From the IMG/VR virus record IMGVR_UViG_3300032038_000033, positions 1 to 64,000 of that record: a stretch of 64,000 nt of DNA; one strand, given 5' to 3'. Origin of the DNA: a virus. Taxonomy: Duplodnaviria > Caudoviricetes. Below are positions 27,791 to 52,294 of this stretch, piece by piece (position 1 is the first letter of the stretch; each line of letters begins with the position of its first letter). The notes beneath the pieces were generated by a model that did not search any database, was not told the DNA's origin, and worked only from the letters and a program-made list of their open reading frames with translations. The position numbers and the translations under genes are program-made.

Positions 27791-28279
27791 ATGGTTAGGA
27801 AACTAAGAATTAACGAAACTGTAAATCTTATGAATTTCTCTATATATAACAAAATAGCTATATTAGGTTATAAATGTTCTTTAGCAGCTAATGACTTACA
27901 TCACATACACCTTTGTGCGGAAGGTGATAAATTTCAAGAAATTCACATTGACGCCGAAAATTATATGGGTAGGGTTAGAGAACTTGGAGATTTATGTTTT
28001 GAATTAGCAAAAGAAGCAAATGTATCATTAATTAATGAAACATATGCCTTAAAAGTTTTAAAAGATAATAATGATTTATGGGAAGTAGAAGATGTACAGT
28101 CTTATTACTTTACAGAAGCATATGAAACTATTTCAAGAATACTTAGTGAACTTTGTGATGAAATAGTAGCTGTTCAGAAAATGCCTGAAATTAGTTCTGA
28201 TGTATCTTCTGAATTAGATACTTATTTAAGAGAATTTACTAAGGACGTTAATTATTTTATTGATAAGAAATTAAGCTGA
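27791..28279 (+). CDS. Ferritin/Dps-like protein with MVRKLRINE leader
   Basis: DLHHIHLCAEGDKFQEIH...D...E four-helix pattern. Confidence 0.6.
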   Translation: MVRKLRINETVNLMNFSIYNKIAILGYKCSLAANDLHHIHLCAEGDKFQEIHIDAENYMGRVRELGDLCFELAKEANVSLINETYALKVLKDNNDLWEVEDVQSYYFTEAYETISRILSELCDEIVAVQKMPEISSDVSSELDTYLREFTKDVNYFIDKKLS

Positions 28280-28351
28280 TTTATTTTTATTCTTAAATGA
28301 TATATAAAAGGGTAGTCGATTGCTACCCTTATTTTTTTTCTATTCCTAAAG

Positions 28352-28405
28352 TTAATAATATGTTTACAAAAATAATAAGTATTTGTAATAATAGTATGTT
28401 ATACT
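28352..28405 (+). promoter_or_regulatory. Phage promoter, repeat-box class
   Basis: TTAATA-N5-TTTACA-N31-TATACT, following terminator at 28308-28339. Confidence 0.7.
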
Positions 28406-28458
28406 AATTACAGTAGATAAGACAACAACATAAACACAAACTTTAGGAGGAATTAATT

Positions 28459-28776
28459 ATGACAAAGACAATGACAGCTACACAGAAGGAAATGAAGAGA
28501 CTTGCAAGAGAGTACACTAAGCTCAATGCCAAAATGAAGGAAATTGAGGACAAGAAGAAGGAACTTGCCGAGCAGATGAAGCAGATTATGGATGCTGAGA
28601 ATGTTGATACAATGTGTGTAGATGAATACACTATCAGAAACAAGAATGTAGATACTACACGCTTTGATTCAAAGGCTCTTAAAAAGAACGCTATAGACAT
28701 TTATAACCTCTATGCTAAGGTTACAAGCTCTGTAAGGTTCACAGTAGATTATACCGCACCTAAGACAGTTGGTTAA
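28459..28776 (+). CDS. Hypothetical coiled-coil protein
   Basis: Strong RBS AGGAGG; TTRFDSKALKK; own promoter and terminator. Confidence 0.6.
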   Translation: MTKTMTATQKEMKRLAREYTKLNAKMKEIEDKKKELAEQMKQIMDAENVDTMCVDEYTIRNKNVDTTRFDSKALKKNAIDIYNLYAKVTSSVRFTVDYTAPKTVG

Positions 28777-28905
28777 TCTAACACATAATAAGTAAAAAGT
28801 GGTTTAATTACCCACTTTTTATTTTTATAAATATTTTCTTTAAACAACTTTATAAGTCATCTACACTACATAATATATGATATAAAATAAAAGAAGGTAA
28901 GATAA

Positions 28906-29115
28906 TTGAGAAGAGATTGTTTTAAGAAAGTTATTTGTGAAATTTGTCGGCATTCTATTCCCACACAAAATAAGTTTTTTAATAAATATGATTGTGAGTT
29001 AAGTAAGAAGCCGAGTAATAAAGAAAATTGTTTTTACTTTTATTGTAATGGAAAAGAAAAGAATAGGAATTGTGACTATTGTTCTTTTTTAAATATAAAC
29101 GACAATCAAGATTAA
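28906..29115 (+). CDS. Cys-rich small hypothetical protein
   Basis: CxxC motifs; RBS GAAGG. Confidence 0.45.
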   Translation: MRRDCFKKVICEICRHSIPTQNKFFNKYDCELSKKPSNKENCFYFYCNGKEKNRNCDYCSFLNINDNQD

Positions 29116-29165
29116 CAATTAGTTTACAAATTATAAATCACTATTTAATATTTATCATTTATAAT
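29112..29165 (+). promoter_or_regulatory. Phage promoter, repeat-box class, heading the leader-protein array
   Basis: TTAACA-ATTAG-TTTACA-N31-TATAAT. Confidence 0.65.
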
Positions 29166-29203
29166 ATATGTATATAATAATAATATAAATGGAGGTATTA
29201 AAT

Positions 29204-29527
29204 ATGTCTATAAGAGAAATTTATAATGATATATTTGACAAAAGACCTGGTAGTTGCATTATTATTTATAAGAAAAATGATACTAATGTACTTTCTCATT
29301 TAGTGTTAAATGATATTATTAAACTAAGAAATATAGACGTAAATGATATTTTATATATTAATTATCAAGAGGGTTATAGTATTATTAGAAAAGAACCCAA
29401 TTATGCCATTGATAACATAAGAGGCACCATAAAGGAAAGTAATTATGGTAATAATAATTATAAGAATTATCTTGAATATTTAGATACTATATATGATAAA
29501 TTTGGAGTAGAAAATTATGAAGATTAA
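29204..29527 (+). CDS. Hypothetical protein (MSIRE start)
   Basis: RBS GGAGG; first gene of the array. Confidence 0.6.
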   Translation: MSIREIYNDIFDKRPGSCIIIYKKNDTNVLSHLVLNDIIKLRNIDVNDILYINYQEGYSIIRKEPNYAIDNIRGTIKESNYGNNNYKNYLEYLDTIYDKFGVENYED

Positions 29528-30056
29528 AATTAAAGAAACAAATTCTTTAGATAATAGAAGTCAATATATTCTTAATCGTTTTATTGAAAATCTTATAAGT
29601 AAATATAATTCTTTTCTTATGGAAGAAATAATAGGTCCTGACGATGAAATAAAACGATATTCTAAATATGTAGATAAAGCTGAAACTAAAACTTCTTTAT
29701 TGAACACATTTACAACTATTATTGAAAACTTAACCTTAGATGATATTGTGAATGATATTAGTGTAAATAGCAGTGACCAAAAAGGTTTATCAATGTATCT
29801 TACAATTACTTTCAATATCAAGAATTTAGTTAATGATTATGTAAAGTTTAAAGAGAAATATGGAGATTTGAGTGAATTTGTTGTAAGAGTTTCAGACCAT
29901 CCTTATAATAAATATACAGGATTTGATAAAAATATTATTTTTAATGGTAAAACTATAAATCAAATTTTGCCATCTATACAAACTTATGTAACTAACAGAA
30001 TTAATAGAGTTAAACAATCGATTCAAGAATTTAATGAGGTAGAAAATAATGGTTAG
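29517..30056 (+). CDS. Leader-family protein (MKIKIKE)
   Basis: Shared N-terminal motif; VRVSDH. Confidence 0.65.
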   Translation: MKIKIKETNSLDNRSQYILNRFIENLISKYNSFLMEEIIGPDDEIKRYSKYVDKAETKTSLLNTFTTIIENLTLDDIVNDISVNSSDQKGLSMYLTITFNIKNLVNDYVKFKEKYGDLSEFVVRVSDHPYNKYTGFDKNIIFNGKTINQILPSIQTYVTNRINRVKQSIQEFNEVENNG

Positions 30057-30942
30057 ACTTATTGAAGGTATTGAAACTGGCGGATATATGTTACATAGAA
30101 CTGGAAATGTAATTCCAGTTAAATATCATCCGTATGGAGTTAAGGGAGATAGCATTTATGACATTCAATATAATATAGCCTGTTCTTTCTTCCTTTATTT
30201 ATATAATAGAAAATATAAGAATATAGCCATAAATACTCTTAAGAACTATGTTGCCTTTTTAGTTAGTGAAAGTGATTTAGTTAATTATGATAATCTTGAT
30301 TATATAGGTAATGACGCTAAAAATCTATTATTTGAAATCTTTGAAGAAGCTGATATAAATAATGATTTGTGTGATTGGTCTAAAACAATTCCCGATACTA
30401 AAAACATACTTTATGATTTTGTAAAGAATATGAGTATTAGTGATATATTAGATGAATTTGATGAAAGTAATAATGGTGTTCAAGATTATGTTTACCTTAA
30501 TCAAGAATATACAAGATTTAGAATTGGTGGAGAATATGATGATACTAATGAGAATGAAATTTATTTCCGTATTAGTTCTTCTGGCTATGATTGGGGAGAA
30601 GATATAGTCGATTTAGTATTTAATAAGTATAGAGATATTCAGTTTATAACTATTGAAAGAGATAAAGAATCTTGTAAGCTAAACGATAGGGATTATAAGA
30701 TATACACACTTAATGGTGTTCCAATAAATCATTATCCTGTAAAAGATTTTATTTTTACAGAAAAACCACCTATATTATCTTCTGTAAATAGAATGAGAAA
30801 AATTCCTATAAGAACTATTGTTGAAGATTTTAGTAGAATGATTAATAATAAAAATACTATTTTAGATTATTTAGACAGAATGAATGATATTGAGAATAGA
30901 TTTGTCAAAAGAAATTATAAGACAAATAAATTTATTTTATGA
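30049..30942 (+). CDS. Leader-family protein (MVRLIE), paralog of 46778
   Basis: YMLHRTG..HP and EIYFRISS.YDW match the 46778 ORF. Confidence 0.65.
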   Translation: MVRLIEGIETGGYMLHRTGNVIPVKYHPYGVKGDSIYDIQYNIACSFFLYLYNRKYKNIAINTLKNYVAFLVSESDLVNYDNLDYIGNDAKNLLFEIFEEADINNDLCDWSKTIPDTKNILYDFVKNMSISDILDEFDESNNGVQDYVYLNQEYTRFRIGGEYDDTNENEIYFRISSSGYDWGEDIVDLVFNKYRDIQFITIERDKESCKLNDRDYKIYTLNGVPINHYPVKDFIFTEKPPILSSVNRMRKIPIRTIVEDFSRMINNKNTILDYLDRMNDIENRFVKRNYKTNKFIL

Positions 30943-30958
30943 TTTAAGGTGTGATATT

Positions 30959-31459
30959 ATGAAATTAAGAATTAATGAAGGTCTTAAAATAACGGATAAG
31001 AAAATTATGGTACTCAAAGAATCTAAAATTATCAATGTCGTATCAGAAGAAACAGGAGAAGTATTACAAGAAATTGATGTTCTAAATCACACAGAGGACT
31101 ATTACATTGATTTAATTAAAAAAGATAATTATATTAATAGAATTGAGCATAACAAATATCATCCTGAAATATTATGCGTTTATGTTTTTGATAGTCTTAA
31201 TAGTAAGAAATTAATGCAACAAGAAATCATAGAAACTCTTTTAGAAGATGTAAAATATGCACTTGAAGCAGCTTATGAAGAATGTAATGAAACATATACA
31301 CATATAGATTTAGATATTCCTAAATACTTAGATGACAGTGACTTATGGCAAAAGATTAATATGACATTAGAAGATAATAGAATTAGTTATAACATAGAAC
31401 ATAAAAATATGAGAATTGGTCCATATAATTATTATTATATGTATGTACGACAATATTAA
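30959..31459 (+). CDS. Leader-family protein (MKLRINE)
   Basis: Start reassigned to ATG 30959 after AAGGTG. Confidence 0.65.
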   Translation: MKLRINEGLKITDKKIMVLKESKIINVVSEETGEVLQEIDVLNHTEDYYIDLIKKDNYINRIEHNKYHPEILCVYVFDSLNSKKLMQQEIIETLLEDVKYALEAAYEECNETYTHIDLDIPKYLDDSDLWQKINMTLEDNRISYNIEHKNMRIGPYNYYYMYVRQY

Positions 31460-31492
31460 TTAAAAATAATTTATAGGTAAGGTGAAGGTATT

Positions 31493-31753
31493 ATGAGACT
31501 TAGAATTAATGAAAATGAAAGTATTGTGGATAAATTCGGAGGTAGAAATTACTCTAATATAAATCCTATACTTCAAGAATATTTAGATTTCTTAGAAGAG
31601 GCTGGAATTGAAGTTTTAAATGTTTATTTAGGTACAAAGAGTATTGAAGTTAGAAATAAAGATTTAGAAGATGCATCGTTTTATTTATGTGGTAGAGATT
31701 ATTTTGGTAAAGATTTATATAAACAAGGTTGGTCCGTTGTTTCTAATATCTAA
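31493..31753 (+). CDS. Leader-family protein (MRLRINE)
   Basis: Shared N-terminal motif. Confidence 0.65.
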   Translation: MRLRINENESIVDKFGGRNYSNINPILQEYLDFLEEAGIEVLNVYLGTKSIEVRNKDLEDASFYLCGRDYFGKDLYKQGWSVVSNI

Positions 31754-31774
31754 ACAAAGAAAGGAATTAATCAT

Positions 31775-32275
31775 ATGAAATTAAAAATACCAGAAAGTTC
31801 TGATTGGAACACAAATACAGATAATCCTAAAATTAATTTTATTAGAGAAATAATGAAAGAAAATAATGATTATGTAGATGACCCTTGTGTGGGTATTTTC
31901 TGGTATGACCCTAATGAAAATGAACTATTTGGTATTCGTTCTAATATAGCGGAAGATACTAATTTTTATTATTCGGATATGTTAAATCAATATGTAAGAA
32001 CAACTAAATTTTTACATTATGCTGTTTGGCAGAAAGAATGTAATAGAGGTAAAGATAATAGATTTCAAACTCTTAATTATACTGAATATCCAAGGGGTAG
32101 GATTTTTGAAATCAAAGATAAAGGCTTTGAAGTTTATGTTGGTAACTGGATAAAAGATTATCCTGAATGTAAAGAATTAATTTTAGATGAATTTCAATTA
32201 CCAAGAAATAAAACAGAATTTGTAATTGATATTCATTGGGATTTAGGTCACGGTTGGAGTGACAAAGAATTTTAA
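31775..32275 (+). CDS. Leader-family protein (MKLKIPE), paralog of 48123
   Basis: GIFWY...H..W...YPRGRI. Confidence 0.65.
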   Translation: MKLKIPESSDWNTNTDNPKINFIREIMKENNDYVDDPCVGIFWYDPNENELFGIRSNIAEDTNFYYSDMLNQYVRTTKFLHYAVWQKECNRGKDNRFQTLNYTEYPRGRIFEIKDKGFEVYVGNWIKDYPECKELILDEFQLPRNKTEFVIDIHWDLGHGWSDKEF

Positions 32276-32294
32276 GAAAGGAAAACGCATTACT

Positions 32295-32795
32295 ATGATA
32301 ACTATTAAAGAAAATAAAACTAATGAGATTTATGATGATTTATATAACTATGCTGATAGGTATAGATTTACTACAAGATGGACTAAGGATAATGTAGAAA
32401 ATTATCTTATAAAAATAAAAAGAATGTATGCTTTATCTGATAAAGAACTTACTGATGTTATTAGTAAAGTAAATAAAGATTTTAAGCGTAAGAATAAAGT
32501 CAAGAGTGACCCTTATGCAGAAACTTCTTACAAAACTGAAAAATTAAACATAAGAGAAAATCAATTAAATAAAGGTAGATATTGGGTTACTGATGATAAC
32601 TACATTCCAATTCCTGAACAACCAGGTAATGGATATACTCAACTCGGAGCTATTCAAAGAGCACAGAGAGAAGCTGAACAATCAGCTAAATTATTTGGTA
32701 AAAGATTTGGTGTTACAATACAAGACGCTGTAAAAGATTATCATATAATGGATAGTGACGGCAATATATGTCACGATTTAGATAATGCTATATAA
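32295..32795 (+). CDS. Leader-family protein (MITIKE; internal KLNIRE)
   Basis: Start reassigned to ATG 32295 after GAAAGG. Confidence 0.6.
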   Translation: MITIKENKTNEIYDDLYNYADRYRFTTRWTKDNVENYLIKIKRMYALSDKELTDVISKVNKDFKRKNKVKSDPYAETSYKTEKLNIRENQLNKGRYWVTDDNYIPIPEQPGNGYTQLGAIQRAQREAEQSAKLFGKRFGVTIQDAVKDYHIMDSDGNICHDLDNAI

Positions 32796-32812
32796 AGGAG
32801 GTTTGATTAGCT

Positions 32813-33229
32813 ATGAAATTAAGAATTAAGGAATCCATAGATATTATGTCTTTACCTACAAGTGAAAGAGTTGAACTTATGATTAAATTCTGGAATGACC
32901 CAAATGTAGTTGGTTCTTTATCTACAGAAAAAGCTATGAGATATTGGGAAAGAAAAGGATTTGACACTTCTAATTATACTTCAGAAGAGTTTAATCGTGT
33001 TTGGGATTTAGCACAAGATGAACTTGACGCAGGTGGTTATGTAGACGAAGAAGATGACTATGAAGAAGATGACTTTGAAGAAGAAATTGAAACCAAAGAA
33101 GATGCTTATAATTGGTTACAAGATAAATTAAGAGAATATGGAAATACATATCATTTTAATAATGAAGATAGATATAAGTTAGATAGGCTTATAGATAAAT
33201 TTGGTAATACTTATTTTTGGAATAGATAA
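32813..33229 (+). CDS. Leader-family protein (MKLRIKE), acidic; C-terminal module shared with 51668
   Basis: AYNWLQDK...LIDKFGNTYFW. Confidence 0.65.
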   Translation: MKLRIKESIDIMSLPTSERVELMIKFWNDPNVVGSLSTEKAMRYWERKGFDTSNYTSEEFNRVWDLAQDELDAGGYVDEEDDYEEDDFEEEIETKEDAYNWLQDKLREYGNTYHFNNEDRYKLDRLIDKFGNTYFWNR

Positions 33230-33568
33230 TTGAAGAAAGGTTGATGATTTATGAAATTAAGAATTAATGAAGATACAAGAACTAATGGTTATTATATGGT
33301 ATATTATGGAGGTACTTGGAATCACGGTTCTTATAGGTGTAACACACAAATGGAATTGCGTGAATTTTTATCTTCAAATATATTTGATAGAATTACTAAG
33401 ATAGAATATGTTGTTGATGAAACAAGTAAGTGGAAAGAATTTGCCAATGTATTATATCAAAATGTAGATAGAAATTCTATAAGTGATGAACAGTATGATA
33501 AATTGTTTAATAGAGGTATTGTTGCTAAATAAATAAATTTGGTAATACTTATTTTTATAATAGATAAT
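33195..33568 (+). repeat. 36-bp direct repeat flanking the 33251 gene
   Basis: ATAAATTTGGTAATACTTATTTTT(GG/AT)AATAGATAAT at 33195 and 33533; related copy at about 52263. Confidence 0.8.
33251..33532 (+). CDS. Leader-family protein (MKLRINE)
   Basis: Shared N-terminal motif. Confidence 0.65.
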   Translation: MKLRINEDTRTNGYYMVYYGGTWNHGSYRCNTQMELREFLSSNIFDRITKIEYVVDETSKWKEFANVLYQNVDRNSISDEQYDKLFNRGIVAK

Positions 33569-33591
33569 ATAATGAAAGGATTTAATTTACT

Positions 33592-34899
33592 ATGAAATTA
33601 CAAATTAAAGAATCTGATGATAAAATAACTGCTAAAAATTTTCAAGAACTTATAGATAAACTTGAAGCACACGGTTATTCTTGTGAACACTATTATGATG
33701 TAGATTATCCTGATAGTAATTGGCTTTATATTACTAAAAATGGCGACCCTTATGAAGCAGAGTTTTATAAATATCGTGATGGTGAGTACGAGTTATATTT
33801 ACATAATATTCATCCTACAAAAGAAAAATCTTATAATGAATCTTATGATAGTGATTATACTTATGAAGATAGATATGAACGTATAAAAAGTAAATCTATA
33901 CTTGATTTTGACGGTTTTTATACCGATTATACTATGTATTACGATAATGAAGAAGATAGGTTTATATTTATATTCGGTGATAATGATTTATATGACCCAT
34001 ATAATTCTGAACCTGATTGGGAATGTGAAACAGAGGAAGAAGCCGAAGATTGGTATAACGATTATAACGGTTTTGAAGATGAATTAGATGAAAGACTTAT
34101 CACTATCAAGGAAAAGATTTCAGATAATGATTATTCTCAATCTAAGAAAGGTAAAGCATATAAAGTTTTTAAAGTTAAAAATGGAAAACTTTATCCGCCT
34201 ATGGTAGCAAATCCTGGTGGTGAAGATACTCCTTTAGGTGTTTGGCTTGATGCAGAAGAAGGTGAATTTGCTGGTTTATCTAAGACAGGTAGAAAGCAAG
34301 TTAAATCTACTGGTAGTGGTAATTTAGCGTATCGTCCTGGTTGGCATTTAGGTGATGTTCCGAGAGCTAAACAGTTTGATAGGTCTTTTGGTTGGGAAAT
34401 AGTTGATAATGTAAATGAAGATGAAGTTATAAAAACAATAAACAACTATACAACATTCGTAAATAGTTACGCTAAAGCTGGTAATGTAGGCAATATATAT
34501 TTTATTAAAGATATAGATAAATATGTTCAAGTAACTAATGATAATGCACCTTATTTCCCATATGATTTTGTTTGGGCTGAATGTGAATATGTAATGGATA
34601 TTGACTATCAAGGTGAAGCTGATGAACAAGGTTATATGAGAACTAAAGCAGACGGTTCTACTTATAGAAGTGACAAATATCAACACTCTCTTGCAGGTTT
34701 ACCTAAATTACCTAAGAATGGTTATTATAAGTATAGGACTAATCCTAATCCTGATACAGTTCCTTGGGTAATTACAGGTGCTATCAAAGTTACTAAACTT
34801 CTTGATGATTATGATGTAGCTAAAATTTTGGGTGGTAATGCACCTGAAAGACAGGGTGGAGATAAGACATTAGCAGAACTTGGTCTTAAACAGATATAA
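33592..34899 (+). CDS. Leader-family multi-module protein (MKLQIKE)
   Basis: Modules separated by SYNES and LITIKE; C-terminal domain with AYKVF..KLYP, LAYRPGWH. Confidence 0.7.
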   Translation: MKLQIKESDDKITAKNFQELIDKLEAHGYSCEHYYDVDYPDSNWLYITKNGDPYEAEFYKYRDGEYELYLHNIHPTKEKSYNESYDSDYTYEDRYERIKSKSILDFDGFYTDYTMYYDNEEDRFIFIFGDNDLYDPYNSEPDWECETEEEAEDWYNDYNGFEDELDERLITIKEKISDNDYSQSKKGKAYKVFKVKNGKLYPPMVANPGGEDTPLGVWLDAEEGEFAGLSKTGRKQVKSTGSGNLAYRPGWHLGDVPRAKQFDRSFGWEIVDNVNEDEVIKTINNYTTFVNSYAKAGNVGNIYFIKDIDKYVQVTNDNAPYFPYDFVWAECEYVMDIDYQGEADEQGYMRTKADGSTYRSDKYQHSLAGLPKLPKNGYYKYRTNPNPDTVPWVITGAIKVTKLLDDYDVAKILGGNAPERQGGDKTLAELGLKQI

Positions 34900-35009
34900 T
34901 ATGTTTAATAAAATTTATACTTTGTTTACTTAATTATAATACTATATTAAAATATATAGTGTATTATTATTGTAAACAAAGTATATTTTTTATATAAGGA
35001 ATGATATAA

Positions 35010-35660
35010 ATGAAACTAACAATTAAAGAAGAACGTGAAATCTTAGAGGAATTAGGTGATTTAGACTATGAAGATGAAAATTTTGATAATGATATAGCGG
35101 AACAATTCTATAATGACATATTAACTGTATTAAATGATATTATAAACACATCTGATATAGTTAAAGAAAATTTTATTTCATCTAAATGCACTAATGACCA
35201 TTATAGAAAACATTGTTTATATAATGTTGAAAATAGACGTTCTACTACTAATAGAGTTTATTATGACTTCACGAATAAAAATCAATATATTGAATATGAA
35301 AAACAGATATCATATCTATCCTCCCATACAGATTATGAAATAACAACTTTGTATGATTATGATTTGATTATAAGATATATAAGAAAATTATTTGAGGGTG
35401 GAATAACTCTTAATTTTACAAATAGTTGTGGGTTAAGAAATAATGATGGTAGAATAAATATGACTTTACATTCGTTTGCTACTAATGTAACAGAAAACTA
35501 TCAAAAAGGTAATACTATTGATATATGTATTAAATCTACAAGAGATAAGACAATAACTTTATACCCTGTAGATGCACATAAATTAGAAAACAAATTTAAT
35601 TCGATTATAAGGTGTTATGGCAATTATATTGGAAATAATATTAAATTCAATAATGATTAA
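35010..35660 (+). CDS. Leader-family protein (MKLTIKE)
   Basis: Shared motif; HYRKH. Confidence 0.65.
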   Translation: MKLTIKEEREILEELGDLDYEDENFDNDIAEQFYNDILTVLNDIINTSDIVKENFISSKCTNDHYRKHCLYNVENRRSTTNRVYYDFTNKNQYIEYEKQISYLSSHTDYEITTLYDYDLIIRYIRKLFEGGITLNFTNSCGLRNNDGRINMTLHSFATNVTENYQKGNTIDICIKSTRDKTITLYPVDAHKLENKFNSIIRCYGNYIGNNIKFNND

Positions 35661-35669
35661 ATTCTAACT

Positions 35670-35762
35670 TTAACAATTTATTTACAATAATAATAAACTT
35701 TTATAACATTTATCTGTTATACTATATTATAGTAAAGAACAGATAAATGTTATTTTTTTTTA
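35670..35762 (+). promoter_or_regulatory. Repeat-box promoter embedded in a terminator hairpin
   Basis: TTAACA-N5-TTTACA-N31-TATACT; perfect 16-bp IR 35703-18/35738-53 plus T run. Confidence 0.7.
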
Positions 35763-35825
35763 TGCTTAGATTAAAATAGAGAAACATTATCCTGAATATT
35801 TGAGTGATGATAAGGAATGGTTTAA

Positions 35826-36959
35826 ATGAAACAGTTTAAAACAGATATGAAATTTGATGAAGAGAAATTTATGAAATCTTTATATTTCTATCCGAATAAT
35901 ATAGAGCCTTTTCCTATTCAAAGGATTAATTGGCTTCATAAACTTCTTGTATGTACAAAATCTGTCTTTAGTAAACTTAAAATAAAATGCACTGGTGACG
36001 GATATTTAGATAAACTTACTTCTCTTGAATTTACTGATAGCCTTATTTATGACGCAATGAAAGATGAACTAAATAGCTATATTTATGATGATAGTATGAG
36101 TTTTGGAGTTGAAGATTTAAATACTTTCTATAAAAGTGCCGCATATAACATCACCTTAATGTATAACTGGAATATATATAAGCAAGTTTATAGATTTGAT
36201 AAAGATACTTTTAATCTACTAATGAATGTTAATATAGATAAAGTGCCTTTTGATATCATAAAGAATAATCTGCCCTATCCTGCATTTTTCATTGACAATA
36301 CATTTAAATCTACTGTAAGTGGAATTGTTTTTAGAGGTTGTTTCGTATCACTACTTAATATGTTTAATGGTTTAGAGCTTTGTTTATTCTTTATAACAGA
36401 TACTCCCGAAAGTGATTACCAATACGCTTTTTTACCTTTATATTTTAAAGAAGATGATTTGACAATCAAAGAAGCCTTAATAAAAAGAAATGAAGTTTAT
36501 GAAGTAGATTGTGATGAATCTATTTTGAAAGATGCTGAAGGTCTTGTTTCACAAGCATTAAAAGCTATAATTTATATTTGTTCTGCGAATAGAGAAATAG
36601 AAACCATAAAGGTAACAGTTAATGATAATGAAAATAAGAAAAATAAGAAAAATAAGAAAAATAAGAATAAAAAGCCTAAAACAGTTACACAGAACAATGT
36701 CGGCTATAAAATGGGTGCTGCGATTAGATTAAATAAAAAGAATTATGTATATGTAGACGAAGAAGGAAATACAATTGATAATAAGAATAAAGGAAATCAT
36801 AGTAAAAAATCACCACATCTAAGAATGGGTCACTATCATCATTATTGGATTGGTTCAAAAGATAAACCCGAAGAAAGAAAACTTGTTTTAAAATATGTTG
36901 CACCTATTTTTATCAATTCCACAGACATTAAAGATACTACATTACACAATGTAAAATAA
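35826..36959 (+). CDS. AcrVA2/FinQ-like protein
   Basis: W..YKQVYRFD, LPYPAFFI, IIYICS, KSPHLRMGHYHHYWIG. Confidence 0.6.
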   Translation: MKQFKTDMKFDEEKFMKSLYFYPNNIEPFPIQRINWLHKLLVCTKSVFSKLKIKCTGDGYLDKLTSLEFTDSLIYDAMKDELNSYIYDDSMSFGVEDLNTFYKSAAYNITLMYNWNIYKQVYRFDKDTFNLLMNVNIDKVPFDIIKNNLPYPAFFIDNTFKSTVSGIVFRGCFVSLLNMFNGLELCLFFITDTPESDYQYAFLPLYFKEDDLTIKEALIKRNEVYEVDCDESILKDAEGLVSQALKAIIYICSANREIETIKVTVNDNENKKNKKNKKNKNKKPKTVTQNNVGYKMGAAIRLNKKNYVYVDEEGNTIDNKNKGNHSKKSPHLRMGHYHHYWIGSKDKPEERKLVLKYVAPIFINSTDIKDTTLHNVK

Positions 36960-36965
36960 ACAGTT

Positions 36966-37020
36966 AAAAAAATATCCTTACACATAAATTCAAAAGTTTT
37001 AGCGTGTAAGGATTTTTTTA
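36966..37020 (+). terminator. Intrinsic terminator
   Basis: ATCCTTACAC...GTGTAAGGAT followed by T run. Confidence 0.65.
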
Positions 37021-37364
37021 ATTATTATTATTTGTGTCTATGTTCTTTCCCATATTGTTATATGTAGAAATTGTTTGGATTGACATCTATTTTATGTAGC
37101 ACTGTACACTGTAGTGTAAGTAGAACCACATAATATATTTTCAAGAAATTTATTGAATTAATTATGTAAATGATTTAATTACGTTCATAATTATGAATAC
37201 TTGTTAATTCTTTAAATACTTTGTACAAATAGAATATTCATTTTTTGTTTAAACACACAAAATTTATTTTATTGTCAAATTTACTGTTGATAAATAGTAC
37301 AAAATATGTTATACTTATAATAGAGAAATACTTTTGTTTTCAATGCTTTTTTGAGGTGTTTATT

Positions 37365-38045
37365 ATGGCGTTAAATTTTAAACAAACCGAAGAAGAATTA
37401 ACTAAATTAGTTAATGAAAATAGAAATAATCCTGAAATATATAAGAAATTACACGCTATTACATTTAATTATTTATATAATGTATTAAAACCCGGTAGTG
37501 AATTATATGATTATGATACCATAGCTTGTGATATTGCCGCAGATTTATTTTTAAGAATTAGAAAAGGAGCTAAAATAGAATATTGGCTTAACTACATATC
37601 AAGAACATTGAAAATGTATTATTTAAGAGATTACCAGAAGAAAAATTGGTCTGTTGTTATAGATACGACTGGAAGCGCAACATTAGAAGAAGCTCTTAAA
37701 CAATGTTTTATAGATAATTCAACTAATTCAAGTCCTATAAATAATTCTCTTAATATTATATACTTAGAACAGTTTGAAAAAATACTTAATAAAGTTTTAT
37801 ACAATAGTAAGTTTAACTTTAATAGTAAAGAACGAGTTAATTTACAGATTTCAATATTACTTACTTTATTAAAGGGTGAAAATACTTATTTTCATATAGA
37901 AGAATATCTTTATCCCTATATACCTATTATTATAGCACAATTAAAAACAGAAATAATAAACTCAGGCTTATTTATAGAAGATAATATATTAAGTACATTA
38001 GAATTAGACCCATTAAATATAAATGATAATTTGGAAGAAAATTAA
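37365..38045 (+). CDS. Hypothetical protein
   Basis: Start reassigned after GAGGTG; TTGATA-N17-TATACT promoter at 37287-37315. Confidence 0.6.
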   Translation: MALNFKQTEEELTKLVNENRNNPEIYKKLHAITFNYLYNVLKPGSELYDYDTIACDIAADLFLRIRKGAKIEYWLNYISRTLKMYYLRDYQKKNWSVVIDTTGSATLEEALKQCFIDNSTNSSPINNSLNIIYLEQFEKILNKVLYNSKFNFNSKERVNLQISILLTLLKGENTYFHIEEYLYPYIPIIIAQLKTEIINSGLFIEDNILSTLELDPLNINDNLEEN

Positions 38046-46777: not shown

Positions 46778-47263
46778 ATGTATGTGAAACTTACAATAAG
46801 AGAAAACTATTTCGGTAATGCCTATCTGCTTACAAGAAATGGAGATGAAATAGATGTTTTAAATCACCCTACTGAAAATTTTGAATTTGAAAGCATATTG
46901 TATTTACTTGAAAACTTTGGCACAGAAGAAGATAAGCGATTAGCTTTAGAATATGAACAAAATCAATTTGACTATTTAAAAGACCAAATTTTACAGAATT
47001 ACAATGAAAATTATTGTAAAGTAAGAGTGTGGGGAATATTTGCTGATGAAGTGACTTTTAGAATTACTTCAACAGATAAATTTAATTGGTACAATATTAT
47101 TGTTGAATTTCTTTTAAAACATAGATATACAAATTCTTTAATTACAGTTGAATCTAACAAAAATGAAAATTATAGAATTTATTGGAACAAAGTAACTTAT
47201 GATTGTGCCGTTAATCCGATAAATAAAATGATTTTGGAAAAGAAACTAAAAAGAACAAAGTAA
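46778..47263 (+). CDS. Leader-family protein (MYVKLTIRE), paralog of 30049
   Basis: YLLTRNG..HP; EVTFRITS..FNW. Confidence 0.65.
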   Translation: MYVKLTIRENYFGNAYLLTRNGDEIDVLNHPTENFEFESILYLLENFGTEEDKRLALEYEQNQFDYLKDQILQNYNENYCKVRVWGIFADEVTFRITSTDKFNWYNIIVEFLLKHRYTNSLITVESNKNENYRIYWNKVTYDCAVNPINKMILEKKLKRTK

Positions 47264-47266
47264 AAG

Positions 47267-47320: not shown

Positions 47321-47334
47321 AATAAATGTAGAAA

Positions 47335-47454
47335 AGAGTAAATAACCACTTAAACTATTGTAAGGGTAATTCATAGTTACACTTACGAATAAGGTACTAA
47401 TTCAACTCGTACTGATTAAAGTTTGTGTGCTTTTATGATAGGGTTATTTACTCT
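47335..47454 (+). ncRNA. Candidate structured ncRNA
   Basis: Closing stem AGAGTAAATAACC/GGTTATTTACTCT starting just after the promoter. Confidence 0.4.
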
Positions 47455-47460
47455 ATATAA

Positions 47461-47535
47461 GGTCGGTTGGTCAAGTGGTTAAGACATTGACCTTTCACGG
47501 CAAAGTCACGGGTTCAATTCCTGTACCGACTACCA
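47461..47535 (+). tRNA. tRNA-Glu(TTC)
   Basis: Cloverleaf, loop CTTTCAC, encoded CCA; one mismatch in anticodon stem. Confidence 0.85.
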
Positions 47536-47675
47536 AATCCGAAATTATAAAATGATAGCTGATTTTATTTGAGTAGGCGTTGCTCACGTTACGAGAAGTC
47601 AGTTTTACGTTTCTGGCGCATAGGAAATTTAGATTAACGTGACCAATGGTTGTGAGGTAAATCAACCTCCTATGT

Positions 47676-47751
47676 TGGGTATTAGCCAAGTGGTAAGGCA
47701 GAGGACTTTGACTCCTTCATTTCGCTGGTTCAAATCCAGCATACCCAGCCA
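47676..47751 (+). tRNA. tRNA-Gln(TTG)
   Basis: TGGGTAT/ATACCCA, loop CTTTGAC, CCA. Confidence 0.92.
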
Positions 47752-47838
47752 TAGCCTATAAAGGCTTATTCATTTTTAATTTCTCGTTTCTGACAAATCG
47801 GAATAGACGGTTGACAGCTTGGACAGACAAGTATTTAT

Positions 47839-47909
47839 GTACCTGTAGTAGGTAGAGCACCGTCCTTTTAAGGGGGTTGTCGTGAGTTCAAGTCTCACCA
47901 GGTACACCA
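47839..47909 (+). pseudogene. Pseudo-tRNA-Lys(TTT)
   Basis: Acceptor and T arm intact; 5' D-stem strand (CTCAG) missing; weak anticodon stem. Confidence 0.7.
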
Positions 47910-48020
47910 TTAAGAGTAAAGCGTTTATTCTGCTTAAAAAATTAGTTAACTTCCTTTTATTTATTTGATGGATTGTGATTAGCAGAATGAGTTGGTTAAC
48001 GAATAGCTTTACTCTTGTGC

Positions 48021-48097
48021 CGAGGTGTAACTCAGCTTGGTAGAGTGCTTGGTTTGGGACCAAGATGCCATAGGTTCAAATCCTGTCACCTCGACCA
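48021..48097 (+). tRNA. tRNA-Pro(TGG)
   Basis: CGAGGTG/CACCTCG, loop TTTGGGA, CCA. Confidence 0.93.
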
Positions 48098-48122
48098 TAA
48101 AATAAGAAAGGAGTTAAGCAAA

Positions 48123-48545
48123 ATGATTACTTTATTAGAAAGTAAAGATAATGCCTTAATAGGTATTTGGTGGTGGACTGGTAATGAAATCATTGGTAAA
48201 TCTTGTTTAGTTGACAATGGATTTACAGATAATCGTTACATTCAATATTCTGATAAAGAAAATCATTTAACTCTTTGGAGAAAAATATGCGAAGAAAACA
48301 ATATACCTAAAGAAATCATAAATAAAGGATATAAGTATTATGAGAGGGGAAGAGTAATCTATAATCTTATGTCACAAAGTTTTGAAGTTATTCTTAGTCA
48401 AGATTTATATGGTAATAAAGATTTTAAACGTGAGTGTAAAGATTATTTCAATTTATATAATTGTCGAGTAGAATTTATTCCATTAAATCATTATTACCGA
48501 GTTGATACAGATAATCCAGCTATATTAGATTTTGAATACGATTAA
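48123..48545 (+). CDS. Leader-family protein (MITLLE), paralog of 31775
   Basis: Start reassigned after AAAGGAG (the listed ORF start overlaps tRNA-Pro); GIWWW...HLTLW...YERGRV. Confidence 0.7.
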   Translation: MITLLESKDNALIGIWWWTGNEIIGKSCLVDNGFTDNRYIQYSDKENHLTLWRKICEENNIPKEIINKGYKYYERGRVIYNLMSQSFEVILSQDLYGNKDFKRECKDYFNLYNCRVEFIPLNHYYRVDTDNPAILDFEYD

Positions 48546-48593
48546 AGATAGGAAAGAATTTATTTACGATTATCTTAAAAGAATTACTAAAGT

Positions 48594-48647
48594 TTAACAA
48601 TTACTTAACATTTATATAACATATTTTTAAATAATATGTGTTATACT
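48594..48647 (+). promoter_or_regulatory. Repeat-box promoter of tRNA block 2
   Basis: TTAACA-N5-TTAACA-N31-TATACT. Confidence 0.7.
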
Positions 48648-48826
48648 ATAATAGTAATACAAATAAATAAGATTGGTGCTACGGGCTATGACTATGTTTA
48701 CAACGTTTATGATATAGAGGCATCCGTTCGGGATATCCTCTTAGAGGAGTTGAACTTAATAATAGGCTTTGAGTATTACACCAGCAGTAGTTAAATGGAG
48801 TTTGATGAACAGCCAATTTTATATAG

Positions 48827-48903
48827 GTGCCTTTAGCTCAGTTGGAAAGAGTAACTGCCTTCTAAGCAGTAGGTTATTGGTTCAAATCCAATAAGGCATA
48901 CCA
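48827..48903 (+). tRNA. tRNA-Arg(TCT)
   Basis: ACTGC-CTTCTAA-GCAGT, CCA. Confidence 0.92.
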
Positions 48904-49010
48904 TATAAAGATTGTAGTGAGTATAAAGCCATAAGAAATTAAGATTTCAATGTACAAACTTATACTTTATAACTTCCGTACAAGGTTTAGTGTAAGAGAA
49001 ATCAGAGATT

Positions 49011-49085
49011 AGATAAATGGTGTAGCGGTAGCACGTTTCCACTATAAGGAAAAGGGTAGCAGTTCAAGCCTGCATTTATCGACCA
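49011..49085 (+). tRNA. Atypical tRNA, anticodon TAT (Ile?), possibly pseudo
   Basis: TTTCC-ACTATAA-GGAAA; C33 instead of U, 1:72 mismatch, CCA. Confidence 0.55.
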
Positions 49086-49245
49086 AAAAGAAAATCTCTT
49101 AAAATTAGTATCTTATGAAAAACAATGGTAAAATGAGAAGTTACAACTTAGTCGGTTTGGAGAAAGACTGTAGGTAAGTGATGTGTACACAAATCCTACC
49201 CATTGTCCTATAGGTGAAAATCCTATAGCAATCTTTATAATATAT

Positions 49246-49335
49246 CTATGTGTAGTATTTATATCATGATACGCTCTGGCCAGAATATAAATATGATATT
49301 GGAAAATGTTAGTTCGATTCTAACCACATAGGCCA
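49246..49335 (+). ncRNA. tRNA-like RNA (acceptor + T arm + CCA, non-canonical core)
   Basis: CTATGTG/CACATAG-G-CCA; GTTAG-TTCGATT-CTAAC. Confidence 0.55.
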
Positions 49336-49568
49336 GCTGACTTGTCAATGTCGTTAAACTTGATAAGTGACAACAGCTTGAAAGCAATTTGGAAGTTGAC
49401 GGTTCGTTTCCGTTTTAATGCAGAGTTTGGCTGCGCAATGACCTCTTTGTAAATGTGATTCCTCCTACTTGTTGCCGCTGTAAGGTGATTTATGAGTAAA
49501 AATACCGAAAGATATTTACAGCTATTGATTAGGTAAAGCTATCGTAGAGGATTGCCGATAGCAGATAT

Positions 49569-49644
49569 GCTGAATAATCCAAAGAAACGAGGTAATTTCC
49601 AAAGTGAAATTAATTAATTGGTGTAAGTCCAATATTCAGCACCA
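49569..49644 (+). ncRNA. tRNA-like RNA, 76 nt, no valid anticodon loop
   Basis: GCTGAAT/ATTCAGC-A-CCA; ATTGG-TGTAAGT-CCAAT. Confidence 0.55.
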
Positions 49645-49791
49645 GAGTTCCAGATAGCTTTAGAGGAAATACACATAAAATTTAGCTATCATAATTGTGT
49701 GTGGCGAGTGATACGTTGCATAAGGCTATTAAGTTAGGTCTGTTTATATCACAATAACTTATGACAGTCTGGAAAGACAGACATTCATAAT

Positions 49792-49878
49792 GCTGCTGTG
49801 GTGGAATAGGCAGACACCTCGGACTTAAAATCCGATGATAGAAATATCGTACCAGTTCAAGTCTGGTCAGCAGCACCA
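49792..49878 (+). tRNA. tRNA-Leu(TAA)
   Basis: TCGGA-CTTAAAA-TCCGA, long variable arm, CCA. Confidence 0.93.
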
Positions 49879-49883
49879 TTTAT

Positions 49884-49959
49884 TCCTCCTTAACTCAGTC
49901 GGTAGAGTGACGCTCTGTTAAAGCGTAGGTCGTTGGTTCAAGTCCAACAGGGGGAGCCA
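49884..49959 (+). tRNA. tRNA-Asn(GTT)
   Basis: ACGCT-CTGTTAA-AGCGT, GCCA end. Confidence 0.92.
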
Positions 49960-49971
49960 TTTTAGGTATAA

Positions 49972-50062
49972 GGGCGTTAAATAAGCTACCAATGTATTAA
50001 ATTCTAAACGGTGAAACGTTGAACGTTGGGTAGAGCGAGAATTTAATCCTTATTTAGCGCCC
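49972..50062 (+). ncRNA. Candidate pseudoknotted ncRNA
   Basis: 14-bp closing stem GGGCGTTAAATAAG/CTTATTTAGCGCCC enclosing two interleaved helices. Confidence 0.5.
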
Positions 50063-50070
50063 GTCTATAA

Positions 50071-50145
50071 GGCCCTTTGGTCAAGTGGTTAAGACGAGAG
50101 CTTTTCACGCTCTAATCGTGGGTTCGATTCCCGCAAGGGTCACCA
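50071..50145 (+). tRNA. tRNA-Glu(TTC)
   Basis: AGAGC-TTTTCAC-GCTCT, CCA. Confidence 0.92.
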
Positions 50146-50293
50146 TATAGCCTATATAAGTTTAGTTTTTATCTTAGTTGTGGTTGTTGCGAATGAAACC
50201 GTCCTTTCATTAGTAAGTCTAATATTAAAAAATTAACACCCTCACAGTTAATTATTTATGTTTATTGACTAAATACTATATAGGCTATTATCT

Positions 50294-50369
50294 GTGTCTG
50301 TAGCTCAGTTGGTAGAGCAGAGCACTTTTAATGCTAAGGTCAAGGGTTCAAATCCCTTCAGGCACACCA
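50294..50369 (+). tRNA. tRNA-Lys(TTT)
   Basis: AGCA-CTTTTAA-TGCT, CCA. Confidence 0.92.
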
Positions 50370-50506
50370 GGGTTGATATATTTTAACCTCATCTCATTCA
50401 TTTTTAATTCATCCTTTGTTTTTAAGTTCGAGTTGTTTGGACGACTATTATGTTTTTAGCACCTAAAGTAATTTTTAGGTGCTACTTTTTTACTTTTATC
50501 TAAAAG

Positions 50507-50560
50507 TTAATAATTAGTTTACATTATTATAAAGACAACTTAATAAATATCTGTTATACT
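50507..50560 (+). promoter_or_regulatory. Phage promoter, repeat-box class
   Basis: TTAATA-N5-TTTACA-N31-TATACT after terminator at 50457-50491. Confidence 0.7.
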
Positions 50561-50618
50561 ATAAGTACAGTAAAAAATACAAAACAAAACAATAATGAAA
50601 AAAATGGAGGAATTAAAA

Positions 50619-50984
50619 ATGACAAACACAACAACAAACATTCAGACATTCAACCCTTATGCAATCTATGAGGAAATTTATGGCTATGATAGCCTTGATG
50701 TAATGACAAGAGAAGAAATAGGCTCAGATTATTATTATCACACTCTTGTTAAGAATGTAAGAGAAGCAGAGAAGTTCAACTATCATACCGATTACTGGGG
50801 TTTTGATGAAGATTATCAGGAAAATGCAGTTGAATTTGTAAGAGAAGTTAAGCCTTATATCGGCAAACGAGTTGGCATTGAATGTGATGACGGCAATACT
50901 CTTATCTGTAAGATAGTGGGTGTTTTTATAGATAGACAGTATAATAGTCACCTTAAAATTCTTATTGAAGATGTTGAAGAATAA
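50619..50984 (+). CDS. Hypothetical protein
   Basis: RBS GGAGG; own promoter. Confidence 0.6.
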   Translation: MTNTTTNIQTFNPYAIYEEIYGYDSLDVMTREEIGSDYYYHTLVKNVREAEKFNYHTDYWGFDEDYQENAVEFVREVKPYIGKRVGIECDDGNTLICKIVGVFIDRQYNSHLKILIEDVEE

Positions 50985-51148
50985 AAAAGTTATTTAGTTA
51001 ATGCAAAAAAAAACAACAATTTTGTAAGGGGTTAAACTACTAATAATGTAAGTATTTAACCCCTTATACAAATAAAAATAAATTAATAATAGAGAATAAG
51101 GCGTTATAAGTTTACTAAATTGATTAGTTAGAAAGGATTTTGATTTAT

Positions 51149-51556
51149 ATGGTTAAAAGATTAAGATTAAATGAAAGTGCTAATGATGATATGGAAATCA
51201 TAGAAGTAATGAATAAAATTAAACAAAGTAATGTGTTCAATCGCAATTTTGATATATATTATTTTGTATGGAATGATAAGCATTTAGAATTAAAAGCAGG
51301 AATTATGTTAGATAGATATTTTCATTACGATAAACTATTTCTTTTTTATAATTCCGCTGAATCTAAAATTCTTAAAATGTCTTTTGAATTGTCTGAGCCA
51401 TGTGATGTGATTAATGAATCTATGAGGAGATTAGCCAATGTGTTTGACAAAGTAGATTATGATAGTGTAAATAGTTATTTAGATACTTTAAAGAATTTAT
51501 GCATAAGTAAGAGTATAGATTATATAGATTTTTATAAAGAATTTATTAGATACTAA
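51149..51556 (+). CDS. Leader-family protein (MVKRLRLNE)
   Basis: Shared motif; ACTAATA motif upstream. Confidence 0.65.
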   Translation: MVKRLRLNESANDDMEIIEVMNKIKQSNVFNRNFDIYYFVWNDKHLELKAGIMLDRYFHYDKLFLFYNSAESKILKMSFELSEPCDVINESMRRLANVFDKVDYDSVNSYLDTLKNLCISKSIDYIDFYKEFIRY

Positions 51557-51667
51557 CTTATAAAATTTATAACGCAAAAAAAAAACAAACAAATTCCTTT
51601 CATAACTAACTAATATTATAAAGTAAAATAACTTTATTATATTATAATAATGAAAGGAATTTTTATT

Positions 51668-52294
51668 ATGGTTAGAAAATTAATGATAAAAGAGAACATT
51701 AAAGTAAAGTCAAAATTAGCTAACATTATATTTAATGATGTTAAAAATAGTATTAGTAAAAAAATTAAATCATTAGGATATGATTTATTGGATGTCATTG
51801 AACTTGATAAAGATGTTACACGAAATACATCTAATTCATCAGATTGTTACATTAAATTTGATTTTAAAAGTACAGCAACTTCTGAGAGTTTTGAAACTAC
51901 TTATGATGTTCTTACTGATATAGTAGATAGATTGGATTTAAAATATAGTAAATATTGGTATAATGATTATGAATCCAGATTATATATAACTTGGGAATTT
52001 GAAACTTATGAAAATAATAATATGAAACCAGTTTATGGTTCATCACAACAGTGGTATGATAGTGACTGTTATTCATTATTAATTTGGATTTATGGTTTAT
52101 ATGATGTAGATGAGGAATTTGAGTCTGATACTGATGATGAACCTATTAGAGATATTTCAAACAAACACGAAGCCTATAGATGGTTACAAGATAAAATAGA
52201 TGAATATGGTGATGTATCATATTTTCCTTATAATGATAGATTGAAATTAAATAAATTGATTGATAGATTTGGTAATACTTATTTTTGGAGATAA
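51668..52294 (+). CDS. Leader-family protein (MVRKLMIKE); C-terminal module shared with 32813
   Basis: AYRWLQDK...LIDRFGNTYFWR; upstream region resembles that of 27791. Confidence 0.68.
   Translation: MVRKLMIKENIKVKSKLANIIFNDVKNSISKKIKSLGYDLLDVIELDKDVTRNTSNSSDCYIKFDFKSTATSESFETTYDVLTDIVDRLDLKYSKYWYNDYESRLYITWEFETYENNNMKPVYGSSQQWYDSDCYSLLIWIYGLYDVDEEFESDTDDEPIRDISNKHEAYRWLQDKIDEYGDVSYFPYNDRLKLNKLIDRFGNTYFWR

Follow-up and report, generated by a model that had tools for sequence, protein, structure and literature searches.

A short glutamate-terminated N-terminal leader on unrelated proteins of an uncultured phage, as a candidate tag for the head-maturation protease

The subject of this report is a short N-terminal leader of the type M-K-L-x-I-x-E, which is shared by otherwise unrelated proteins encoded in a 64,000-nucleotide stretch of viral DNA (Duplodnaviria; Caudoviricetes), hereafter “the window”, i.e. 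the first 64 kb of the single 104,460-bp virus record IMGVR_UViG_3300032038_000033. Through comparison with related phages, we have come to read this leader as a removable propeptide, or tag, for a head-maturation protease of the T4 gp21 type (Peptidase_S77), which would cut it after the glutamate: the tag would guide its protein to the prohead's scaffold/protease core, as does the capsid-targeting sequence (CTS) of phage T4, and would be clipped there, while the mature, mostly acidic protein would stay in the head and then be delivered to the host along with the DNA. Together, the tagged genes make up a fast-turning-over accessory set. We place the probability of this reading, a T4-type head-protease leader together with packaging of unrelated proteins, at roughly 0.6, and its parts differ in strength: cleavage of the tagged proteins by the S77 protease is likely, judging from the sequence comparisons; packaging into the head is, by analogy with T4, somewhat probable; injection, with host-directed or anti-defence roles, is a tentative extension of the same analogy.

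The preliminary description of the window had reported such a leader on about sixteen proteins. All sixteen N-termini translate as written at the positions listed in Table 1, each located 3-12 nt behind a Shine-Dalgarno-like site, and the run of eleven consecutive genes, from 29204 to 35660, is confirmed; the shared tag holds as well, with the qualification that MSIRE, at 29204, fits a loose I-x-E form only. Our counts are based on the strict pattern ^M-x(0-3)-[LIVM]-x-[LIVM]-x-E, with the expectation taken from the frequency of the pattern inside proteins: the pattern occurs at 25 of the 150 plausible gene starts of the 104-kb record (2.2 expected) and, when a preceding Lys or Arg is included, at 14 starts (0.27 expected). 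At the level of DNA, the back-translated M-K-L-x-I-x-E pattern has seven matches in the window, six of which are located at tagged starts, versus 0.10 in dinucleotide-preserving shuffles.

The leaders are five to nine residues long: the residue before the presumed cut (P1) is Glu throughout, 22 of 22 leaders have Ile or Leu at P3, P5 is hydrophobic, frequently with Lys or Arg before it, and the residue after the cut (P1') is mostly Ser, Asn, Thr, Gly or Asp. The synonymous codon variation that had been pointed out within the tag is real and matches the codon usage of the genome (Leu at P5: TTA 9, CTT 3, CTA 2, TTG 1; Glu: GAA 20, GAG 2), and the amino-acid changes preserve the alternating hydrophobic pattern and the Glu; because the codons follow genome usage while the substitutions keep the pattern, these comparisons show selection on the tag at the peptide level. 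The claim that no replication or metabolic gene starts in this way is not quite accurate: the starts at 7598, 24760 (clamp-loader delta-like, MTLMELKE) and 40701 (MILISE) also match the pattern, at about the level of chance. The first of these belongs to an HNH/helix-turn-helix homing-endonuclease open reading frame (ORF; 7598-8341) that lies between the pieces of the polymerase gene and starts with MRKIILNE, its counterpart in the relative G003, introduced below, starting with MRKIIYNE; it may be a chance match or a tagged endonuclease.

The bodies that follow the tags are, as had been described, mostly unrelated: in an all-versus-all BLASTP of 24 tagged proteins with the tags removed, one pair (32813/51668), which shares a 65-aa stretch, was found at an E-value of 0.01 and no other, so that a single paralogous family is not supported. 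They had also been called acidic and rich in Tyr, and the first of these properties is clear (median isoelectric point (pI) of the mature bodies 4.8 versus 6.1 for other proteins, Mann-Whitney P = 2e-5), while Tyr is just slightly elevated (7.9% versus 6.3%). No common Pfam or PHROG family was found among the 20 of 24 proteins scanned with Pfam and the 11 scanned with PHROG (31493, 33251, 83681 and 93624 were left out of these scans); the scans gave marginal matches and one PHROG of unknown function as to what the cargo does, and no recognisable enzyme domain was found in the scanned tagged proteins of the record. Look-ups of 30049 and 48123 in the ESM Atlas gave no usable lead. A secretion signal (Sec, Tat or lipoprotein) was considered and rejected, as the leaders alternate hydrophobic and polar residues, reach their Glu by residue 5-9, are followed by polar acidic sequence and do not contain the hydrophobic core of about ten or more residues that secretion signals have.

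The link between the tag and a head protease is provided by G003, a 272,222-bp IMG/VR contig (27.5% GC) that was found by a scan with the UvsX-type recombinase and is the closest relative of the record: the two have 59 proteins in common, and gene order is conserved between their replication modules, at identities of roughly 45-70%. The same MKLxINE tag is present in G003, where 28 starts match the tag pattern (4.7 expected) and the M-K-L-x-I-x-E DNA pattern has 13 matches on the coding strand and none on the opposite strand. The head module of G003 is of the T4 type according to Pfam (Portal_T4, 150 bits; Peptidase_S77, 36.9 bits with a cut-off of 27; Gp23, 70 bits), and its protease forms a single polypeptide with a long coiled-coil scaffold. 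An alignment of four protease-scaffold sequences has invariant His, Ser and Asp columns, which we have taken as the catalytic triad by analogy with gp21-type proteases (PMC5694885). The N-terminus of the G003 protease reads MKSKLVE↓S...SLRLVE↓S, with putative sites (arrows) at KLVE-7 and RLVE-18, and the capsid protein carries ...KRINMAE↓S. When a scoring matrix built solely from the leaders of the record was run over the 70,077 positions of the G003 proteome, the SLRLVE↓S site of the protease ranked 16th, and 14 of the top 40 positions were N-termini.

A profile scan with the protease alignment has yielded 80 loci, which fall into two classes: 29 loci of a Glu type and 51 of another type. In the Glu class, the capsid protein, where its gene is located on the locus, reads ...KYAKRI-x-h-x-E↓(S/A) at about residue 26-36 (h, hydrophobic), and the proteases with an intact 5' end have a leader-like or h-x-E N-terminus (MKSQLVE, MQVLIE, MGKATIIE, MAKSVLIE). 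In the other class, the protease has no tag start and the capsid N-terminus is basic, with no h-x-h-x-E site and, in many loci, with the sequence R-R-P-I-T-A-G..S-I-T-S-G. Tag-like starts follow the same division: they occur in 34 of 500 genes at the Glu-class loci versus 7 of 919 at the others, and, in whole genomes, in 25/150, 28/347, 25/292, 22/209, 12/187, 9/242 and 1/245 genes of the Glu class, versus 3/226, 2/192 and 1/197 in the other class, all three at expectation. Among the genomes examined, expansions of the tag were thus seen in the Glu class only. A genome of 39% GC has 22 tagged starts and the most AT-rich one, of 24.5% GC, has one; this contrast, the codon usage and the strand-specific matches in G003 exclude an AT-rich initiation bias, the explanation that the preliminary description had set against its own.

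Tagged genes are also located close to head genes. Peptidase_S77 is present in the genomes G002 and G001 as well, and in G002, a complete phage of 128 kb, the leader occurs in 20 of the 42 genes between portal and protease versus 17 of 145 elsewhere (P = 2e-6), in the dialect MITVLNE/MIRVIIE; in G008 and at loci L052-L061, the position immediately upstream of the protease is taken by tagged genes. The dialects differ from genome to genome (MKLxINE, MKLYIxE, MIRVxE, MITVLNE), while the chemistry is constant. Two tail-sheath N-termini, MPRVIINEID and MPQIKVNEID, also match the pattern; they recur on the sheath proteins of several phages and have been treated as chance matches. As a separate observation, the gp23-type capsid gene of G002 (locus L012, 45389-51062) is in at least three coding pieces, split by GIY-YIG/HNH homing-endonuclease ORFs, and a GIY-YIG ORF is also located just before the protease gene.

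In sister phages that have the same protease-scaffold family and Glu-free capsid N-termini (L081-L131; G001, L017-L026; L124:8636-13062), small acidic neighbour proteins start with M..K-[IV]-T-A-G; such starts have the look of another leader dialect, of an Ala/Gly type, which would imply a re-tuned protease specificity.

The leader behaves as a module in two of the tagged protein families. The C-terminal domain of the protein at 33592 (window 34096-34899, about 265-267 aa) recurs in large phage contigs, with 398 homologues that are 55-97% identical, and the N-terminal parts to which it is joined there are diverse (GNAT, ferritin/rubrerythrin-like and others); in 22 of 45 short forms, a leader ending in h-x-E directly precedes the start of the domain, (E)K-[IV]-S-E-x-D-Y-S. 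The corresponding position in the other class reads ...R-P-I-[TM]-[AS]-G, the protein starting with MYRYLRP-I-[TM]-[AS]-G; since the domain is preceded by R-P-I-T-A-G where the capsid protein reads R-R-P-I-T-A-G, the leader co-varies with the capsid site. In one phage of this class, the gene of the domain is located immediately upstream of the protease. We have found no Pfam family for the domain, and its AlphaFold2 model (mean pLDDT 65.7) gave nothing at E <= 0.001 in a Foldseek search of the Protein Data Bank. The domain is accessory, as it is found in only 2 of 36 related genomes; its high conservation is surprising for such a sporadic phage gene.

In the second family, that of 30049, 14 of the 21 database entries have the leader as called and 7 start at an internal Met, located 20 residues downstream. 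The leader is kept down to 36% identity, its sequence drifting (MIRLIE, MIILKE, MININE, MIKLTE) around a constant pattern. The G003 orthologue (L039, 55171-56085, minus strand) has the leader ..I-T-K-L-N-I-N-E↓S only if translation starts from ATT/ATA, and an orthologue from the other class (class B) is without a leader.

Only two tagged proteins have a homologue in G003, and the island of about 11 kb that holds the main cluster (26.0-37.4 kb) is missing from that genome, where the orthologues of its flanks are located at 96040-96339 and 95177-95863; the turnover of tagged genes between relatives is therefore fast, and in this they resemble the internal-protein loci of T-even phages, which are polymorphic (PMC3012670, PMC12373910).

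Two groups of proteins in G003 and its allies are recorded here as side observations. At locus L046 of G003 (187621-189650, minus strand), tagged genes are located upstream of the portal gene: one encodes a Methyltransf_23-domain protein with a tandem double leader (MKLNINE..KLSINE), and the adjoining gene encodes a protein of the S-adenosylmethionine (S-AdoMet) lyase family with a borderline leader. The S-AdoMet lyase of phage T3 has an anti-restriction function, and these two G003 proteins are our sole functional hints. Downstream of the capsid gene, a conserved, highly charged protein of 370-440 aa is encoded (G003 171229-172542; L054:15358-16656; equivalents at L056, L060 and L061); it occurs at those Glu-class loci that resemble G003, combines a centre that is rich in Cys and similar to a zinc ribbon with a basic C-terminus rich in repeats, and, given its start MA-x-x-(I/L)-N-V-F-E↓L, is a candidate for a conserved head protein with a tag.

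In T4, the leader of the internal proteins has 10 residues and is of the MKTYQEFIAE type; its removal from IPI, IPII and IPIII by the prohead protease gp21 was reportedly described by Mullaney and Black in 1996 and is covered in reviews (PMC9026906, PMC3012670, PMC12373910). More generally, a T4 leader of 10-20 residues binds the protein to the scaffold core, gp21 cuts at (L/I)-x-E and has a site, LIE-9, near its own N-terminus, and the mature internal proteins are injected with the DNA (PMC5694885, PMC9026906). These proteins are alike only in the leader (PMC5694885, PMC9026906, PMC12373910, PMC3012670), and each of the three acts as an inhibitor of its own type IV restriction enzyme, different from those of the others (PMC12373910). 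The likeness to the present case is fourfold: a short leader is the sole common feature of unrelated proteins, which in T4 are non-essential and polymorphic; it ends in (L/I)-x-E; a Peptidase_S77 protease is located in a gp20/gp21/gp23-type head module, here in the relatives; and the protease N-terminus has sites of its own (LIE-9 in T4; KLVE-7 and RLVE-18 in G003). The system differs from that of T4 in its shorter leader of 5-9 residues with the consensus [KR]-h-x-h-x-E, in its scale (about 25 tagged genes in a fragment that is 58% complete and 28 in G003, versus three internal proteins plus Alt for T4), in the protease-scaffold fusion of the relatives, in its host, which is probably of the Bacillota, and in being known from genes alone. 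Alt is a close match in length: it loses only six residues, at ITE-6, is also cut at LTE-619, and is packaged (PMC5694885). Its propeptide is thus comparable in length and chemistry with MITIKE, MVRLIE and MITLLE, and second, internal or C-terminal sites occur here too (KLNIRE-88 in 32295; LTIRE near residue 224 in 103556); Alt differs in being an ADP-ribosyltransferase, a recognisable enzyme of a kind not seen in the scanned tagged proteins.

Among jumbo phages, phiKZ, 201phi2-1 and SPN3US also have dozens of head-internal proteins that are cut after Glu by gp21-related proteases (gp175/gp245), with propeptides that have multiple sites and are believed to direct these proteins to the prohead (PMC5694885, PMC10052503, PMC9026906). 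Their sites are S/A/G-x-E, with a small P3, their propeptides are mostly of at least 100 residues and their hosts are Gram-negative (PMC9026906, PMC5694885); phiKZ-type inner-body processing has been rejected for the present leaders, given their Ile or Leu at P3 and their length of 5-9 residues. The closest cultured phages by capsid protein are the Thornevirus members Bacillus phage SP-15 and Listeria phage LIS04, together with Bacillus phage vB_BceM-HSE3, although their capsid proteins are only 33-37% identical. Their head genes follow one another as in the relatives, the portal being followed by a protease-scaffold fusion and this by a gp23-type capsid protein; the protease of LIS04 is annotated as “peptidase U9, T4 prohead protease”, and h-x-E sites are present at the N-termini of the protease (..LSIVE↓S, ..LTLVE↓G) and the capsid protein (..DVNE↓A, ..AVNE↓A). 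Virion mass spectrometry on these phages was not found in the literature searched. The principle is therefore textbook knowledge in T-even phages, and a related one is known in phiKZ-like phages; what differs here is the host group, the very short leader with its genome-specific dialects, the scale of about one gene in six, the acidic cargo and the protease-scaffold fusion. For phages that infect Gram-positive bacteria, the literature searched contained no description of leaders of this kind.

Several findings weigh against the proposal that the leader is a T4-like tag read by a Glu-specific head protease. There is no protease or capsid gene in the record: searches with Peptidase_S77 and Gp23 across all of its 104 kb were blank, and the main tagged cluster is surrounded by replication genes and is not located beside head genes. 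In G003, the capsid site RINMAE↓S ranks only 3774th of the 70,077 positions scored with the leader matrix and fits a loose pattern only. The Glu-class genome G014 has the protease and capsid sites and no tag expansion, as is the case with LIS04 (8 tagged starts versus 3.8 expected) and HSE3 (3 versus 2.3). The cargo is acidic, whereas the internal proteins of T4 are basic (PMC9026906). Virion proteomics, N-terminal sequences and expression data for members of the clade were not found in the literature searched. For these reasons, the link between tag and protease rests on relatives, since the record has no head genes; only a pattern-level match is claimed for the capsid site, in view of its rank; and the presence of the protease is insufficient to predict a tagged gene set, as G014, LIS04 and HSE3 illustrate. 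The preliminary description had predicted a gp21-like protease gene and motif sites in capsid or scaffold proteins, and both have been found, in the relatives only, the record being a fragment without head genes; its central idea of a T4-like tag read by a Glu-specific head protease is well supported by comparison with those relatives.

The same observations may be read differently. The head protease might cut the tag with no connection to packaging, a late cytoplasmic trimming, by the protease or by a free pool of it, that activates, inactivates or relocalises the proteins; the comparative evidence does tie the tag to the protease and not to the capsid interior, the location of the main cluster among replication genes and the acidic bodies, unusual for DNA-associated head proteins, would be in keeping with such an arrangement, and a 2026 preprint (PMC12991175) describes phage proteases that activate the host pathway CBASS (cyclic-oligonucleotide-based anti-phage signalling system) by proteolysis. 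We consider this unlikely: in T4, protease and substrates are built jointly into the prohead core, and the leaders of the internal proteins are capsid-targeting signals (PMC5694885, PMC9026906), the fusion to the scaffold ties the present protease to the prohead interior, the tagged genes of G002 and G008 are located within or beside the head module, and the loss of so short a stretch (5-9 residues) seems a poor means of regulating 25 unrelated folds. We prefer packaging as the reading of the tag because the tag is all that 25 unrelated proteins have in common, because protease and scaffold are one fusion protein and because prohead proteases do their work within the prohead. The tag might also address the proteins to different machinery, such as a host or phage chaperone, to an unfoldase or N-degron pathway or to another compartment, with a coincidental likeness to a protease site; it would equally be the sole common feature of unrelated proteins, as any sorting signal would, and the record itself contains no direct link to a protease. 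This is nevertheless quite improbable, as it leaves unexplained the tag on the N-terminus of the protease itself, the restriction of the expansions to genomes with a Glu-site capsid protein and the switch of the leader to the capsid-type I-T-A-G in the other class, and the tag does not have a hydrophobic core of the length of a secretion signal.

It is also conceivable that the conserved 5' end, made up of the ribosome-binding site and the first seven codons, is kept at the level of the nucleic acid, as a translation-initiation enhancer in an AT-rich genome or as a homology patch for cassette recombination: K, L, I, N and E all have AT-rich codons, AGAAAGGA precedes many of the leaders at 9-12 nt, and the tagged genes are located in variable islands that differ between relatives. 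Against this stand the tag codons that follow genome usage with substitutions that keep h-x-h-x-E, the single tagged start of the 24.5%-GC relative versus 22 in the 39%-GC one, the excess over dinucleotide-preserving shuffles, the matches of G003 on the coding strand only, the genome-specific dialects of one chemistry and the orthologue that retains the peptide behind a non-ATG start, so that we regard this explanation as very improbable; recombination at the common 5' end may nonetheless aid the turnover of the set as a secondary effect.

The record has a GC content of 27.3%, carries nearly every gene on the plus strand and is rated about 58% complete; it is a fragment of an uncultured giant phage. 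Its nearest database relatives, at the protein level only, are phages of Clostridium, Streptococcus, Bacillus and Listeria, so that a Bacillota (Gram-positive) host is likely. Neither a megablast of the tagged cluster nor a tblastn of the 435-aa protein at 33592 found a match in 50,697 phage records. PHROG and Pfam scans of the window have identified a helicase loader/primase, a sliding clamp, a clamp loader, a UvsX-type recombinase, NrdDG, an NAD-dependent ligase, mobile elements and a family-A polymerase, the gene of which is broken up and contains an HNH insert; these scans gave no gene for a portal, capsid, protease or tail protein. Adjoining the tagged cluster is the sole sizeable minus-strand gene of the window (26405-27544), encoding a DUF6273 protein of 379 aa whose PHROG matches include a Hoc-like head-decoration family; it is located within a 2-kb patch in which the GC content is higher (33.5%) and the GC skew is reversed, and it resembles a foreign insertion. 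A ACTACTAATA(T/A)T box is located 40-115 nt upstream of several tagged genes (Table 1). A shared late promoter has been rejected as a distinguishing feature, because the ACTACTAATA box also precedes nrdD here and the tail-sheath gene of G003; the box is a candidate promoter class.

Table 1. Tagged genes and associated features of the window and of the remainder of the record.
Feature	Coordinates	Strand	Length (aa)	Leader	Remarks
Variable island holding the main cluster	26013..37364				flanks 25746-26012 and 37365-38045 only ~180 bp apart in G003
Tagged gene	27791..28279	+	162	MVRKLRINE	mature pI 4.5; weak PHROG “DNA binding protein” match only
Tagged gene	29204..29527	+	107	MSIRE	short leader, loose form only; no Pfam family
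Tagged gene	29517..30056	+	179	MKIKIKE	distant G003 homologue (196614) with leader MILHLTE
Tagged gene	30049..30942	+	297	MVRLIE	21-member family
Tagged gene	30959..31459	+	166	MKLRINE	
Tagged gene	31493..31753	+	86	MRLRINE	
Tagged gene	31775..32275	+	166	MKLKIPE	
Tagged gene	32295..32795	+	166	MITIKE	second copy KLNIRE at residues 83-88; sole basic body, pI 8.5
Tagged gene	32813..33229	+	138	MKLRIKE	C-terminal 65 aa 49% identical to 51668
Tagged gene	33251..33532	+	93	MKLRINE	
Tagged gene	33592..34899	+	435	MKLQIKE	C-terminal 267 aa, widespread domain
Tagged gene	35010..35660	+	216	MKLTIKE	final gene of the consecutive cluster
Tagged gene, dispersed	46778..47263	+	161	MYVKLTIRE	G001 (class B) orthologue, 44% identical, without leader
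Tagged gene, dispersed	48123..48545	+	140	MITLLE	G001 orthologue without leader
Tagged gene, dispersed	51149..51556	+	135	MVKRLRLNE	
Tagged gene, dispersed	51668..52294	+	208	MVRKLMIKE	
Eight further tagged genes in the record beyond the window	74173, 75011, 75841, 76365, 83681, 86397, 93624, 103556				
ACTACTAATA(T/A)T box sites	window 27726, 44698, 51036, 59860; record 71837, 74069, 86354; G003 168592				

If the tag works as it does in T4, the sequence alone would label the proteins that an uncultured jumbo phage delivers with its DNA; two dozen unrelated, fast-evolving and unannotated proteins would then be a rich source of candidate anti-defence or takeover factors acting in Gram-positive hosts. 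That these proteins form a large, quickly exchanged arsenal, made in advance and injected to disarm defences or to take over the cell before any phage gene is expressed, with perhaps at least 40 tagged proteins in the full genome, or about 15% of its genes, is a speculation that we consider rather doubtful; if it were true, injected effectors could be listed directly, from sequence only, in uncultured phages of Gram-positive bacteria. A tag of 5-9 residues could also be a compact packaging handle where phage capsids are engineered as protein carriers. Should the I-T-A-G dialect of the sister phages be a true counterpart of the Glu-terminated leader, the head protease and the address label would co-evolve as a re-tunable pair, and the Glu-type and Ala/Gly-type lineages would be a natural experiment on the co-evolution of head-protease specificity and its substrates.

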